The notes under the pieces: model-generated | Told to the model about the DNA's origin: nothing | Database searches by the model: none | What the model saw: only the letters and a program-made list of their open reading frames with translations | Made by a program: the position numbers and the translations under genes | In this document: one piece after another, positions 12,250 through 16,504 of the stretch | Position numbering within the stretch: the first letter of the stretch is position 1 | How the letters are laid out: each line of letters begins with the position of its first letter | Origin: a virus | Taxonomy: Duplodnaviria; Heunggongvirae; Uroviricota; Caudoviricetes | Direction: 5' to 3' (one strand) | IMG/VR virus record: IMGVR_UViG_2778261083_000002 | Length of the DNA: 16,504 bases

Positions 12250-13551
12250 TTAAATCCGAAGTGATGTGACTCTTCCGGTCGGTTTGACAATAGGGAATTG
12301 CTTAACGATGAAATAACCTCCGGCATCATTCGGGTGATCATTGCCAGATTTTTTATCAGGCTCCCCCTTATCATCCCAGACCTGTTGCTCCAGAGATTCG
12401 GCATATACCGGACAACGCTTCACATTAACTTTATAGCGACGCTCACCATTGGCATTGCAGAACATTGCATTCATTGAGTTAACGCGATCTTTTACTGGCG
12501 GGTTCGAGCTGTTCACCACAACGTTAAAACCTGCCTGCTTAAGCTGGGCTATATCCGTCGTACTTGCGTTACTTGATTTTCTGGAATCTCCGGAAGCATC
12601 TGGATAAATATAAATCTCCCTCACTTTCCGGTAATCATGCCCGTCATACAGCCAGAAGCGTTCTTTAATGAGGCGGATCATATCCGGCGTATCGTAGGCA
12701 TTGATGATTTCAGTTACCGCACATGGAAGCCCCAAACGCAGCACATGGACGATTCCCGCCATCTTTCCAACGTTAAAATCCATCCCAATATAAATCGGCT
12801 CCCCTGGCTGCTCCACTTCTTCGCAATTATTCAGTTTCCGGTCAAACTGATGGTAAACAGTACCACTTGTCAGGTTAGTAAACCGTCCTAGAAGATAGGC
12901 TTTAATCAGCTCTGGAGGGTATGATTCAAGAAGTGAAGGAATGTAATCTGCTGGCAGGTTCTTTTCATTATCGAAAGTAGATGCCTGCACCAGACCATAC
13001 AGTGAGGCCAGCTCTGTTTTTTCACGCACGGCTTTAACAAACTGCTCGTAGACAAATTTGAATCCTTCCGGCGTGGTTGTAACGTCAATACCGTTGCGAA
13101 GTCCATCAATCTTATAACGCATACGCGCAATTATCTTGCGCCACGCCGTTCTGGCTTTTTCCTTCGGCAAAATGTCCAGTTCATCCACCAGCGCATTACC
13201 AATTTTGAAACCGACGATCGTTTGTGGCTTCTCCATCGATCTGCAGATAGTGGTTCCCCGATACTGGCGTCCGTAATAAAAGTGAACCTCTTTATTTCCC
13301 TCATTAATTTTTACGTTCAATCCCCAGTCAGCAGCAACTTCTTCCACTGTAGGGTAAAAAATATCGCGAATTTGGGGATACGTTGGCGCAAAATATCCCT
13401 GATTTATACCTGGATGCTCCCAAATCCCCTTGCATATGCCGCCACACCCAACCCATGTTTTGCCCGAGCCAAAACCAGCAATATAGGCTTTAAATTTATG
13501 GGGCATTGAAAGAAATCGCGCCTGAGGCACATTAAGCGTCGGAGAGATCAT
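12250..13551 (-). CDS. Terminase large subunit
   Basis: Walker A AGFGSGKT near the N-terminus, Walker B-like LVDELD, and a C-terminal nuclease-like region (IYIGMDFN). Preferred start is ATG 13551 (MISPTLNV...) with AAGGAG 8 nt upstream; the track start at 13560 is GTG. Overlaps the terS 3' end by 20 nt. Confidence 0.9.
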   Translation of the reverse strand: MISPTLNVPQARFLSMPHKFKAYIAGFGSGKTWVGCGGICKGIWEHPGINQGYFAPTYPQIRDIFYPTVEEVAADWGLNVKINEGNKEVHFYYGRQYRGTTICRSMEKPQTIVGFKIGNALVDELDILPKEKARTAWRKIIARMRYKIDGLRNGIDVTTTPEGFKFVYEQFVKAVREKTELASLYGLVQASTFDNEKNLPADYIPSLLESYPPELIKAYLLGRFTNLTSGTVYHQFDRKLNNCEEVEQPGEPIYIGMDFNVGKMAGIVHVLRLGLPCAVTEIINAYDTPDMIRLIKERFWLYDGHDYRKVREIYIYPDASGDSRKSSNASTTDIAQLKQAGFNVVVNSSNPPVKDRVNSMNAMFCNANGERRYKVNVKRCPVYAESLEQQVWDDKGEPDKKSGNDHPNDAGGYFIVKQFPIVKPTGRVTSLRI

Positions 13552-14626
13552 CTTCATCACTCCTTAATCTGGCATCAACCACATTAATATTGATCGCCAC
13601 AGGCTGGGGATGTTCATTATCCTCCACCGTTTCGATCTCTTTGCGCAGCTTCTGGTTCTCTATTCTGCGCCGTTCAATTTCCAGTTCCTGTAGCCGCTTA
13701 TCTGCACATAATGCCCCGCCAGCAGAAAGCAAACGCAACAATTCACGCCGGGCGGCAGCCTTATCCTCCAGCAGGATCTCAACACCGTATTTTCCGAGCT
13801 TTGACCCTGCATATAATTGCCGCGCATCCCCATCAAGCAGTGTGGTATCAGCCATATAAAGCTGTCCTGTTCCCTCACCGCAGCACTTCGGGCAATCAGG
13901 ATTGGGTATGGCGTTATCAACAAAGCCGAGGCCTCCATATTCCGGCTCGGGTTTACCATCTCTGGAGGCCTGTGCCGCAGCCTTATCGAATTCTGCAATA
14001 TCACGCCACTGGTAGAGATGATTCTCGCCCCAGCAATAACGGCAGTTAACACGGCGAAATTGTGCCAACTGATTGGGGTCGGCCTGGACAATGGCCATCA
14101 ACTGGCTCACCAGTAAATCCAGGTCTGCGGTATAGCGTTTCTGGTACTGATTGCGGAAGTAGCTGATAGCACGATAAACCCTGGCATTTCTAAGCATACG
14201 GCTGGCGTTGCTGTTAGCTGTCGCACCTTGCCCCTCATAACCAGCCAGTCGGTATGCCTCTGTCGGCTTTTTCCCCTGAGCAACCAACATGGCGAATTTT
14301 GCCTGCTGGTCAGAAATACCGAATTCATCGGGGCAGAACGAAATTTCTTCCGTGTCCCCCTCAATCAGGAGTGCATCGGATACAGCCTTTTTTTTCTGAG
14401 ATTTTCCGTTCTGCCTTTGCGCAGTCTGCGCAGTTTTTTTTCGCGCACTTTTTTGCGCAGTTTTGCGCATTTCTTTCTGCGCATTTTTCGGAGTTTTTTT
14501 GATGTAACGACGGGCTGTTGCGTAGTTCAGTCCCCTTGCTTCACACCATGCCACCGGAGATATACCGGAGCGGGTGTATTCAGCAATATACTCCTGCTGC
14601 AACGCCCCCCAGTCCGGTCTGCTCAT
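13532..14626 (-). CDS. Terminase small subunit, atypically long (364 aa)
   Basis: Central segment QQAKFAMLVAQGKKPTEAYRLAGYEGQGATANSNASRML resembles the HTH core of small terminase subunits. It is preceded by a second, similar HTH-like N-terminal segment (YIAEYTRSGISPVAWCEARGLNYATARRYI) and a Lys/Ala/Gln-rich linker, and followed by a Cys4 motif (CRYCWGE ... CPKCCGEG). Directly upstream of the large subunit. Confidence 0.8.
   Translation of the reverse strand: MSRPDWGALQQEYIAEYTRSGISPVAWCEARGLNYATARRYIKKTPKNAQKEMRKTAQKSARKKTAQTAQRQNGKSQKKKAVSDALLIEGDTEEISFCPDEFGISDQQAKFAMLVAQGKKPTEAYRLAGYEGQGATANSNASRMLRNARVYRAISYFRNQYQKRYTADLDLLVSQLMAIVQADPNQLAQFRRVNCRYCWGENHLYQWRDIAEFDKAAAQASRDGKPEPEYGGLGFVDNAIPNPDCPKCCGEGTGQLYMADTTLLDGDARQLYAGSKLGKYGVEILLEDKAAARRELLRLLSAGGALCADKRLQELEIERRRIENQKLRKEIETVEDNEHPQPVAININVVDARLRSDEDDLSDA
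14418..14483. repeat. Array of six TGCGCA-type palindromic hexamers separated by T/A homopolymer tracts, inside the terS 5' region
   Basis: TGCGCA at 14418, 14427, 14454, 14464 and 14478, plus CGCGCA at 14442. Spacings are 9-15 bp, with T7-T8 runs at 14390-14397, 14434-14441 and 14494-14500. Extended consensus is TYTGCGCAK. Confidence 0.7.
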
Positions 14627-14629
14627 CAG

Positions 14630-14881
14630 TTAGTCCTGATTTTTATCCACCCTGAGTAGTTCGCGCAGAGCAAAGGCATCCCCTTTTCTGGCAAGCTTAA
14701 ACAATGCCGCTCGTAACTCGGCTTCACCTTTCGCTCTGCCCTTACGGATGGCCGCATAAAAATCTGTCATTGCTTCCCGATTTTCTTTCAGTCGGTTCAG
14801 ATCAACATCCAGAACGTCAGCGATTTGTTGTGCAGTCATCCGGCACGCTGCCAGAGACTCGACTTTCGAATACGGAATCAT
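14630..14881 (-). CDS. Small HTH-like protein (about 69-83 aa), function unknown
   Basis: ORF immediately upstream of terS. The segment MTAQQIADVLDVDLNRLKENRE resembles the N-terminal HTH of lambda Nu1-type small terminase or excisionase-like proteins. Start is ambiguous (14881 or ATG 14839), and it overlaps the 3' end of the upstream gene in another frame. Confidence 0.55.
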   Translation of the reverse strand: MIPYSKVESLAACRMTAQQIADVLDVDLNRLKENREAMTDFYAAIRKGRAKGEAELRAALFKLARKGDAFALRELLRVDKNQD

Positions 14882-15749
14882 TTGTCACCCCCATTGATAT
14901 GCAGGGTGTCTTCTTCCTGTATTTTTCGTGAAGGATTTTTACTGCAGCGTTGTTCCAGGTGACCTGATGGTGAATGCGTTTATGGCTGGCACCCATCAGT
15001 GAGATTTTTACGCACGACGGCGAATACATGACGGAGTAAAAACTTTTAACGTAGGTTCCGGAATCCAGATACAGCTCGGTCATTCCGCCGCTGTTTTTCT
15101 GCGTCTGTTTCTGCCCTAACTGGACAGCACCGATCGTCATAAACAATTCACCACAGCGACCGAGATTCGTGTACGTATTCACATCCTCGTTAATGCGCCC
15201 CATGAATGAGAACGGTCGATCAACCGAACAGATAAAGCTGTTCATTGCCTTGCGTTTCACCCACGAAGCATGGCCGCCATTGTCACCAAGAAAATCCCCG
15301 CCCTGCGACATAGCGATGGAAAGCGCGGGTATTGATTCGTAATACGCCAGCATTTCAGAAAGGATCGCATCCAGTTTCCTTATCGGGAAATAGGCCTGGT
15401 CATAGTTGCGATCCACCCGAAACTGGAACTCGTGAAAATCATCATCGAGCTGAATGAAGTATTTACACCCGACCAGTTTTGCCAGGTCGAAACAGGCATT
15501 ACGGGCGTAAAAAATTGAGCGGCGATCACCAAAATTATCGGCTTCGTCAAAACGACTGGCAATATCGGCTTTGGAAAATACCAGCACCTGTTCACCAAAT
15601 TCAGCCATGTACTGATGCCGTGTCTTATCTTCATCATCAACAACGATAAAAATTTTCCCGGTATAGCCAGCACGACGCAACGTCCGGTAAGTCAGAACTT
15701 TGTCCGGTCGCCCGTGAGTCAGAATAAAGGCGCAAAAATCATCACGCAT
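14817..15749 (-). CDS. Putative GT-A-like (DxD motif) nucleotide-sugar transferase; function unknown
   Basis: About 310 aa. Contains beta-strand-like FCAFILTHGRPD, an acidic-ended strand KIFIVVDDED, and YFIQLDDDF (DxD) with spacing reminiscent of the GT-A fold. Preferred start is ATG 15749 (MRDDF...), preceded by GGAGGAGGAGGAA, and it overlaps the ParB-like stop (ATGCGTGA). The in-frame track start at 15773 is an alternative. Confidence 0.6.
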   Translation of the reverse strand: MRDDFCAFILTHGRPDKVLTYRTLRRAGYTGKIFIVVDDEDKTRHQYMAEFGEQVLVFSKADIASRFDEADNFGDRRSIFYARNACFDLAKLVGCKYFIQLDDDFHEFQFRVDRNYDQAYFPIRKLDAILSEMLAYYESIPALSIAMSQGGDFLGDNGGHASWVKRKAMNSFICSVDRPFSFMGRINEDVNTYTNLGRCGELFMTIGAVQLGQKQTQKNSGGMTELYLDSGTYVKSFYSVMYSPSCVKISLMGASHKRIHHQVTWNNAAVKILHEKYRKKTPCISMGVTNDSVFESRVSGSVPDDCTTNR

Positions 15750-16497
15750 ATTCCTCCTCCTCCTCCCCGCCATGCATGATCTCCACCATGCGCTGCGTCA
15801 TTCGGACAAATCCATTTTCAATAGCCTGCTGATAATCAATGATCACCAGCGCCGACTCCTCGAAAAGGCACTGAATTTCAGCGGGGGCATGAGCGTAATA
15901 GTCCGCAATTCTGCTGAAATTAAACACTGTGTGACGTTCTGCCGCACACAGGAGGAATTTCTCAATATCAGGATCAAGGGACGCCGAACGTATCCGGCTG
16001 ATCAGCTCCTGAGTTTTCGTATCGTCGTACAGTTCACTGATATCCGGTTTACCGCCCGACGGCTCATAAACAGGCGTATCAATTTTCGTCGTATACGGCT
16101 CCTCCTCATTTCCTGTACCGGGCAAAACATCCGTCAACAGTTCATCAATTTCTGTCGGGATGAAGCCTGTCAGGGAGACATCAAAATCAGCATTGATTAG
16201 GTCCGACAGCTCCATCCGCAACAGATCTTCATCCCAGCCAGCATTCATCGGCAGGCGATTATCTGCCAGGCGGTACGCCTTTTTCTGCTCATCCGTCAGG
16301 CCAGACAGAACAATGACCGGAACAGAATCCATTTTGAGCATTTCAGCCGCCATAACACGACCGTGACCCGCAATAATTTCGCCCTTTTCGTCAATCAGCA
16401 CCGGATTAGTCCAGCCGAATTGCTTAAGGAAGGTGCGAACAAGTTCCTGATATGAGATCATCATATTCATCCGGAGCGCATCCCAGAGGGACATCAT
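15742..16497 (-). CDS. ParB-like nuclease-domain protein; N-terminus may extend beyond the window end
   Basis: N-terminal segment PVLIDEKGEIIAGHGRVMAAEMLKMDSVPVIVLSGLTDEQKKAYRLADNR resembles the ParB/sulfiredoxin nuclease domain (GxxR box). Acidic C-terminal tail GGEEEEEYA. The frame is still open for the two codons between 16497 and the window edge. Confidence 0.7.
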   Translation of the reverse strand: MMSLWDALRMNMMISYQELVRTFLKQFGWTNPVLIDEKGEIIAGHGRVMAAEMLKMDSVPVIVLSGLTDEQKKAYRLADNRLPMNAGWDEDLLRMELSDLINADFDVSLTGFIPTEIDELLTDVLPGTGNEEEPYTTKIDTPVYEPSGGKPDISELYDDTKTQELISRIRSASLDPDIEKFLLCAAERHTVFNFSRIADYYAHAPAEIQCLFEESALVIIDYQQAIENGFVRMTQRMVEIMHGGEEEEEYA

Positions 16498-16504
16498 GAG
16501 CCAT

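Follow-up and report, generated by a model that had tools for sequence, protein, structure and literature searches.

A conserved ParB-like protein–glycosyltransferase pair at the head of phage packaging operons, a candidate DNA-modifying module truncated by IS5 in a Rac-type prophage sequence

The tailed-virus DNA analysed here (Caudoviricetes; IMG/VR record IMGVR_UViG_2778261083_000002) is a stretch of 16,504 nt, referred to in full as the window, which carries at one end a gene for a ParB-like protein, a gene for a glycosyltransferase and a small gene, followed by the genes for the small (terS) and large (TerL) terminase subunits. All genes between positions 12250 and 16504 are on the minus strand. 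An initial annotation had described the first three as a co-oriented, translationally coupled trio with a possible role in sugar modification of phage DNA. Comparison with related loci resolved the trio into a conserved pair, namely the ParB-like protein and the glycosyltransferase, which stands next to the packaging genes in viruses of many bacterial phyla and of archaea, and a small gene that appears to belong with the terminase. The features of the locus, with the evidence for each, are as follows.

15742–16497, minus strand: ParB-like open reading frame (ORF) as given in the ORF list (251 amino acids, aa)
15742–16427, minus strand: 3′ part of the ParB-like gene, codons 39 to the end plus stop; homolog of ynaK (PHROG 620, alignment)
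16357–16368: GHGR box of the ParB-like protein
14817–15749, minus strand: TET-associated glycosyltransferase (TAGT) family enzyme of GT-A type, 310 aa (PF20691, PHROG 842, AlphaFold 2 model)
15627–15644: VVDDED motif of the glycosyltransferase
15435–15449: LDDDF motif (DxD) of the glycosyltransferase
14630–14881, minus strand: small 83-aa protein resembling the N-terminal domain of terS (PHROG 309, jackhmmer)
13532–14626, minus strand: terS, 364 aa, context (Pfam Terminase_2, E = 1.2e-08; PHROG 51, E = 6e-75)
12250–13560, minus strand: TerL, 436 aa, context (Pfam Terminase_6N and Terminase_6C)
16428–16504, no strand assigned: terminal segment of an IS5-family element (Megablast; alignment to the intact locus L002)

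The genes are tightly packed. The ParB-like stop codon TGA (15742–15744) and the glycosyltransferase ATG (15747–15749) lie within ATGCGTGA, where the two genes overlap, and the ATG is preceded by a GGAGGAGGAGGAGGA run (GGAGG repeat); further downstream the 83-aa gene overlaps the 3′ end of the glycosyltransferase gene by 65 nt, and 3 nt separate its TAA stop codon from the terS ATG. These junctions are consistent with translational coupling. The glycosyltransferase ORF also has a longer form of 318 aa starting at 15773, the 310-aa form starting at the ATG at 15749. The ORFs, their strand and their junctions are thus real, as first described; the ParB-like gene, however, is incomplete, having been cut by IS5 (see below). 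The trio region was 98–100% identical to Rac-type prophages, and 859 of the 5426 complete E. coli genomes held at least 80% of it at 95–100% identity; this count and the thousands of homologs place the trio far beyond chance.

The middle protein, which the initial annotation could not assign and suspected of being undescribed, belongs to a recognised family. It matched the Pfam family PF20691 (TAGT), reportedly first defined by Iyer et al. in 2013, with 120 bits against a cut-off of 27.5 (E = 1.7e-34; profile positions 4–205 of 205), and PHROG 842 ‘beta-glucosyl-HMC-alpha-glucosyltransferase' with E = 8.5e-103. The family includes the T2/T6 enzyme that adds a second glucose to glucosyl-hydroxymethylcytosine (hmC) DNA (PMC13216743; PMC13390438). 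AlphaFold 2 (AF2) modelled a GT-A fold with a high predicted local distance difference test score over residues 1–230 (mostly above 85 over residues 1–150), and Foldseek matched this model to SpsA, AvpGT, WrtF and glycogenin in the PDB and, at E = 5e-23, to viral TAGT models. Both acidic motifs were invariant (D38, D41 and D102–D104 in 42 homologs); Pfam, AF2 and Foldseek support the GT-A-like, DxD-type character originally proposed from these motifs. A basic, conserved region follows at residues 231–288. A PDB sequence search with the glycosyltransferase gave no match, and no NCBIfam model matched either this protein or the 83-aa protein.

Two further features of the glycosyltransferases were observed. 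The E. coli protein carries a C-terminal extension of about 22 aa that is missing from the homologs of about 288 aa and overlaps the 83-aa gene (window 14817–14881). Elsewhere, TAGT domains are fused to a class-I S-adenosylmethionine-dependent methyltransferase, a sulfotransferase, a second TAGT or an N-terminal P-loop domain (GxxxxGKS) (P0247, P0254, P0278, P0287, P0260, P0273, P0266, P0292 and P0300), which suggests sugar tailoring in some viruses, with O-methylated, sulfated, phosphorylated or disaccharide products.

To define the genomic context of the enzyme, homologs were collected (7972 proteins at 90% clustering, and 1502 clusters at 50% identity, 720 of which had E below 1e-30) and neighbourhoods were compared at 45 loci, comprising 39 species-level genomes and loci from three metagenomic or genomic look-ups. 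A ParB-like gene of about 260 codons lay directly upstream, on the same strand and overlapping the glycosyltransferase start, at every one of them (45/45). The 39 genomes span Proteobacteria, Bacteroidota, Firmicutes, Chlorobi, Planctomycetes, Actinobacteria and others, and glycosyltransferase identity outside the enterobacteria was 48–59%. Large terminases encoded no more than four genes downstream represented at least five Pfam families (Terminase_6N, Terminase_3, TerL_ATPase, GpA_ATPase and the T7 type); proximity to the terminase, noted at first as atypical for a transferase, is therefore the rule for this cassette. The pair also precedes the packaging genes in four cultured viruses, the Lactobacillus phages c5 and phi jlb1, the archaeal virus HHTV-2 and a Porphyromonas phage, the last of which has kept the pairing with a glycosyltransferase only 27% identical; in c5 the order is cos, ORF1 (ParB-like), ORF2 (glycosyltransferase) and then the terminase. 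The only exception seen to the pairing was in 191-kb Vibrio jumbo phages, whose 44%-identical glycosyltransferase has no ParB-like neighbour; in one of these, pv27 (L132 5887–6888), the TAGT homolog lies between primase/exonuclease and helicase genes.

Values of dN were 0.13–0.36 for the glycosyltransferase and 0.28–0.57 for the ParB-like gene at saturated dS, indicating purifying selection on both, a conclusion that is qualitative as saturation precludes an exact dN/dS ratio for most pairs. The pairwise divergences of the two genes were correlated (r = 0.66). A 5mYOX dioxygenase gene (TET/JBP) was adjacent at none of the 45 loci, the ParB-like gene always having the glycosyltransferase as its neighbour; the association with TET/JBP that gave PF20691 its name was not seen for this cassette in the upstream genes scanned.

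Separate observations were made in the sequences upstream of the pair at two loci. On the plasmid pCBA3643-01 of Virgibacillus sp. CBA3643 (L104 4581–7846), an apparent four-gene operon encoding an NAD-dependent sugar epimerase/4,6-dehydratase, a sugar-1-phosphate nucleotidyltransferase, the ParB-like protein and the TAGT stands directly upstream of terS/TerL, and this phage-like element seems to provide its own nucleoside diphosphate (NDP)-sugar donor. In phi jlb1 (L133 11350–12746), the 1.4 kb directly upstream of the ParB-like gene holds no ORF longer than 73 aa and could represent a site for packaging or a region specifying a non-coding RNA.

The partner protein matched PHROG 620 with E = 6e-71. 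For its N-terminal domain the nearest relatives were the ParB domains that occur in fusions with phage DNA methyltransferases (PHROG 498, E = 1e-37), and intact homologs carry a precomputed match to PF02195 (ParB/Srx); c5 ORF1 scored 31.7 against the cut-off of 26.3, and the truncated window copy 16.7 against the same cut-off. According to the AF2 model, the intact protein consists of a nucleotide-binding domain (residues 1–100), helices (103–134), a disordered linker of about 35 aa (136–169) and a helical C-terminal domain (170–254). Foldseek matched the model to Noc, ParB, KorB and PadC (E about 1e-6), and G57, G59 and R60 were invariant in 37 homologs. Profile and fold comparison thus bear out the ParB-like assignment and the GxxR box first described. 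In the profile alignment, GHGR falls on the GERR of Noc/ParB, with the Arg and the following (D/E)N motif kept and the Glu replaced by His.

The best-conserved parts of the protein lie outside the ParB domain, in the KIDTPVYEP of the linker and in C-terminal residues 191–245: conservation across phyla was 0.69 for the linker motif and up to 0.83 for the C-terminal domain, and 0.4–0.5 for the N-terminal domain. The linker motif PYTxKIDTPVYEP (residues 146–160; window about 16027–16071) has invariant residues though AF2 predicts disorder; its role could be that of a docking peptide or of a site for modification. No Pfam family matched the C-terminal domain, which was modelled with low confidence such that its fold matches are not interpretable; a dioxygenase hidden in this 94-residue helical region was considered and is implausible.

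These data lead us to propose, with moderate confidence, that the pair is a TET-independent module for DNA glycosylation, expressed late, with the ParB-like protein serving to activate the enzyme or to load it. We infer DNA as the acceptor from the membership of the enzyme in a DNA-modifying family, the likeness of the ParB domain to those of the methyltransferase fusions, the jumbo-phage homolog within a replication module and the fixed position at the start of the packaging operon, and the activator role of the ParB-like protein from its ParB176-like architecture; the family assignment likewise favours the sugar modification of phage DNA suggested by the initial annotation. In such a scheme, a translationally coupled two-gene cassette would be expressed at the head of the late (packaging) operon, and the glycosyltransferase would use an NDP-sugar as donor to glycosylate phage DNA that has been replicated and is about to be, or is being, packaged. 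The ParB-like protein, as a nucleotide switch, would be the obligatory activator or loader of the glycosyltransferase on double-stranded DNA, in the manner of the ParB-like proteins that activate phage thymine dioxygenases. A subclass of these dioxygenases is described in PMC13229309 as needing a ParB-like protein specifically on double-stranded DNA (5mYOX176/ParB176), and guidance of modification enzymes to DNA by ParB proteins during packaging is a proposal of Aravind's relayed by Burke et al. (PMC8256090). The sugar would be built and then decorated, which fits the Virgibacillus sugar genes and the TAGT fusions.

The closest known systems share part of this arrangement. Phage clusters of a 5mYOX (TET/JBP) dioxygenase, a ParB and a glycosyltransferase (Burke 2021, PMC8256090; Pyle 2023, bioRxiv 10.1101/2023.12.21.572611; O'Toole 2026, PMC13229309) likewise have a TAGT-family GT-A enzyme, a terminase-side location and occasional neighbouring sugar-tailoring genes, and their ParB (ParB176), as described in PMC13229309, has the same architecture of nucleotide-binding domain, helical segment, linker and C-terminal domain with no DNA-binding domain. 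They differ in that here no dioxygenase, C5-methyltransferase or hydroxymethylase occurs beside the pair or elsewhere in the checked genomes, so that the hydroxymethyl acceptor on which their pathways are built is missing, and it is the glycosyltransferase that invariably adjoins the ParB-like protein. The T2/T6 beta-glucosyl-HMC-alpha-glucosyltransferase, which adds the second glucose to give gentiobiosyl-hmC, belongs to the same Pfam and PHROG families and shares the GT-A fold and DxD motif, whereas in T-even phages hmC is made before replication, a first glucosyltransferase is needed, there is no ParB-like partner and the gene lies away from the terminase; the similarity is remote, tblastn at 1e-5 giving no match to the glycosyltransferase in T-even phages. 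Phage ParB–DNA methyltransferase fusions (PHROG 498; N6_N4_Mtase or Methyltransf_23 with ParB_N, PMC12704722) have the most similar N-terminal domain and are DNA-modifying and prophage-enriched, but the catalytic partner here is a glycosyltransferase from a separate overlapping gene, and the ParB-like protein has its own conserved C-terminal domain and linker motif. From the CTP-dependent clamps of partition ParB, Noc and KorB it differs in lacking a helix-turn-helix (HTH) domain and a ParA, in its acidity, in the His for the GERR Glu and in its C-terminal domain.

Several observations weigh against the proposed module. When 30 upstream ORFs of 200 aa or longer were scanned one by one, TET_JBP did not appear, and it was likewise absent from the first 25 of the 49 families in a scan of four upstream genes per locus. 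No TET/JBP or thymidylate-synthase-like hydroxymethylase was annotated in the three complete or near-complete genomes checked, those of the Rac-type prophage, c5 (complete, 31.8 kb) and phi jlb1 (complete), and nine hypothetical proteins of c5 were also negative. No acceptor is therefore available under known chemistry, which is the main weakness of the proposal, and a protein is the reported substrate of one TAGT relative, GREB1 (PMC7968844). On the side of the partner, the AF2 model of the intact protein has no HTH or other DNA-binding domain, and the protein is acidic, with an isoelectric point of 4.25–4.75 across 37 homologs and a net charge of −25. The nucleotide chemistry may also differ because the GERR Glu, to which the ParB literature as summarised in PMC13229309 gives a hydrolytic role, is aligned with His. 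No ParB–glycosyltransferase fusion occurred among the top 150 cluster representatives, and our literature search found no experimental study of any member of the TET-less ParB–TAGT subtype.

Because no TET/JBP dioxygenase or hydroxymethylase was found, the cassette appears to work without the usual acceptor-making enzyme, and its acceptor would be something other than the usual 5-hydroxymethyl-pyrimidine. A bolder form of the proposal would have the pair add sugar directly to unmodified DNA, at a canonical base or a DNA end, with no prior hydroxymethylation and with the ParB-like protein as a nucleotide-gated loader. We consider this form unlikely; if true, no earlier DNA glycosylation pathway would have dispensed with both TET and thymidylate-synthase-like enzymes, and this one would be present in about one-sixth of complete E. 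coli genomes as well as in tailed viruses that infect archaea and bacteria of many phyla.

A protein acceptor, such as terS, the portal, the capsid or the ParB-like protein itself (at the invariant Tyr/Thr of the linker PYTxKIDTPVYEP), would account for the lack of a hydroxymethyl-pyrimidine source in the genomes and loci checked. It would suit the location of the cassette at the head of a morphogenesis operon and the high conservation of the linker motif (0.69) despite its predicted disorder, and at one locus the capsid gene is followed by two GT2 genes. The TAGT-domain protein GREB1 is reported to O-GlcNAcylate ER-alpha (PMC7968844), but all characterised phage members of the family act on DNA (PMC13216743; PMC13390438). 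Glycogenin, which glucosylates its own Tyr, is among the fold matches, though these are weak (template-modelling score about 0.3–0.4). The partner, moreover, has the fold of nucleotide switches that operate on DNA and is similar to a protein proven to activate a DNA-modifying enzyme, the nearest relatives of its N-terminal domain are fused to DNA methyltransferases, and the jumbo-phage homolog lies within a replication module. On balance, protein glycosylation seems doubtful.

Less probable still is an acceptor among small molecules or nucleotides (a host immune signal, a nucleoside or an envelope precursor), which would make the ParB-like protein a regulator in a counter-defence or host-modifying module. 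AvpGT with Ara-A, a nucleoside glycosyltransferase, is among the best PDB fold matches, but the fold matches are those of a generic GT-A enzyme. The ParB fold does occur in small-molecule kinases such as SerK and in Srx, and no DNA acceptor is evident; against this, expression from the start of the late operon would come too late for most counter-defence roles, both proteins lack membrane or secretion features, and the fixed terminase-side position in unrelated phages would be left unexplained.

It is very improbable that the pair is a decaying, functionless remnant of a TET–ParB–glycosyltransferase cluster whose dioxygenase was lost. TET/JBP neighbourhoods do often hold glycosyltransferases (31%), ParBs (27%) and terminases (19%), and the E. 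coli ParB-like gene is repeatedly disrupted (IS5 here, IS3 elsewhere, and pseudogenes). Both genes are, however, intact and paired at 45/45 loci, with 48–59% glycosyltransferase identity and low dN at saturated dS; they persist in the compact genomes of small virulent phages, c5 for instance; and among 80 IMG/VR E. coli prophage loci, which are near-identical and were used for intact-gene counts and not as a measure of diversity, the glycosyltransferase was intact in 80/80, the ParB-like gene in 79/80 and the small ORF in 77/80. Equally little credence attaches to a partition protein or packaging nuclease acting independently of the glycosyltransferase, as database names such as ‘ParB-like partition nuclease' and the location beside cos/pac and the terminase might suggest and as the initial annotation had entertained for the nuclease: no ParA gene was found in the neighbourhood of the E. 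coli loci, the TIGR00180 score of 38.5 is below the partition-ParB threshold of 58.45, the protein is very acidic and has no HTH or other DNA-binding domain, neither the integrating prophages nor the virulent phages that carry it need a partition system, its best-conserved, family-specific part is the C-terminal domain and not a nuclease motif, and its strict overlap with the glycosyltransferase gene points to a joint function.

To our knowledge, the pathways that hypermodify phage DNA with sugars have been worked out only for cases in which a thymidylate-synthase-like enzyme or TET/JBP first provides a hydroxymethyl handle. The loci compared here show that a large share of the TAGTs regarded as ‘solitary' have a partner after all: where the packaging operon begins, their genes overlap those of a characteristic ParB-like protein, under strong purifying selection and in both bacterial and archaeal viruses. 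In published surveys, solitary TAGTs were counted in 288 of 753 phage genomes with their function left open (PMC13216743), about 65% of glycosyltransferase contigs were classed as solitary (Pyle et al., bioRxiv 10.1101/2023.12.21.572611), and glycosyltransferases without 5mYOX or thymidylate synthase (ThyS) neighbours were deemed less likely to act on DNA. If the product is modified DNA, the pair would represent a new modification chemistry and a second enzyme class under the control of a ParB-like protein; if it is a modified protein, it would link glycosylation to packaging in a new way. As the cassette is found in an inducible E. coli prophage type, the product should be accessible to standard tools.

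For the window itself the biology is more modest, the cassette copy probably having been disabled by IS5. Window positions 16421–16504 matched IS5/insH copies at 97.6–98.8% identity (Megablast), and the alignment to an intact locus from phage vB_EcoS-683R6 (L002) diverged directly after window position 16427, at a TTAA in codon 38/39 of the ParB-like gene that matches YTAR, the target sequence of IS5. Because homology to the intact gene ends at this position, the 23 initial codons of the listed 251-aa ORF are IS5-derived; their product was unrelated to the intact 263-aa ParB-like protein in a protein alignment, and the window lacks the first 38 codons of the intact gene and with them the conserved PYA(R/H)NARTHS box. 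The module in the window is probably inactive, since IS5 took away the 5′ end of the ParB-like gene, a truncation overlooked when the ORF was first taken as a whole gene. No complete E. coli genome of the collection contained this IS5/ParB-like junction. Other disruptions of the same gene were also seen: IS3-family insertions in seven of the best matches, a pseudogene in AR_0077 and in K-12-type Rac, and a copy in two pieces in Shigella flexneri (L090). In strain C1, an ISKpn26 insertion lies beside a ParB gene.

In intact copies, the gene order is Q, tRNAs, the S/R/Rz lysis genes, trkG, the ParB-like gene (263 aa; named ynaK by RefSeq), the glycosyltransferase (310 aa), the small ORF, terS, TerL and the portal gene. 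The E. coli K-12 Rac prophage carries ynaK, a member of this gene family that likewise follows trkG; presumably it has kept only a short ynaK fragment and lost the glycosyltransferase and morphogenesis genes. A terminator-like hairpin with a 10-bp stem follows trkG, about 25 nt before the ParB-like ATG (L002 11162–11185), from which we infer that expression of the pair would depend on Q-antiterminated late transcription and be late only; a simple scan of the intact locus for a lysogen promoter serving the pair gave nothing above shuffle expectation. The potassium transporter gene trkG (L002 11272–12747, in the part of the intact locus that extends past the window) is itself a moron separating the ParB-like gene from the lysis cassette.

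The 83-aa protein, introduced initially as a small HTH protein and a member of the trio, is a homolog of the terS N-terminal domain and no conserved partner of the pair. It matched PHROG 309 ‘terminase small subunit' (E = 8e-23; profile positions 145–218 of 319), and in jackhmmer it aligned to residues ~17–97 of the products, 125–201 aa long, of genes directly 3′ of the glycosyltransferase elsewhere. The matched region is N-terminal only, and 83 aa are too few for the oligomerisation core and the TerL-binding C-terminus of terS; similarity to the window's own terS was not detected. As a separate gene, the 83-aa type was found only in enterobacterial relatives, and a Terminase_2-type terS is present both in the Pantoea locus (Pfam-annotated) and in the window. 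Because of its homology to the N-terminal DNA-recognition domain of terS, the protein is probably a packaging accessory or the remnant of a donor terS and would go with the terminase and not with the enzyme pair. PGAP calls the small gene at 69 aa (start 14839); the start at 14881 is favoured over this call because homologs of 85 aa in Pantoea and Serratia begin directly after the glycosyltransferase stop codon, and these align from residue 1 of the 83-aa version.

One variable region was observed at a distance from the pair. In the AR_0077 prophage, the nin-region (L001 17256–20028) encodes an ATP-binding protein, an O-methyltransferase and a DNA cytosine methyltransferase, and at the same site vB_EcoS-683R6 encodes an S8 peptidase and an FtsH-like protein; because the two differ there, the site is a variable hotspot, one that could matter for DNA modification in some lysogens.

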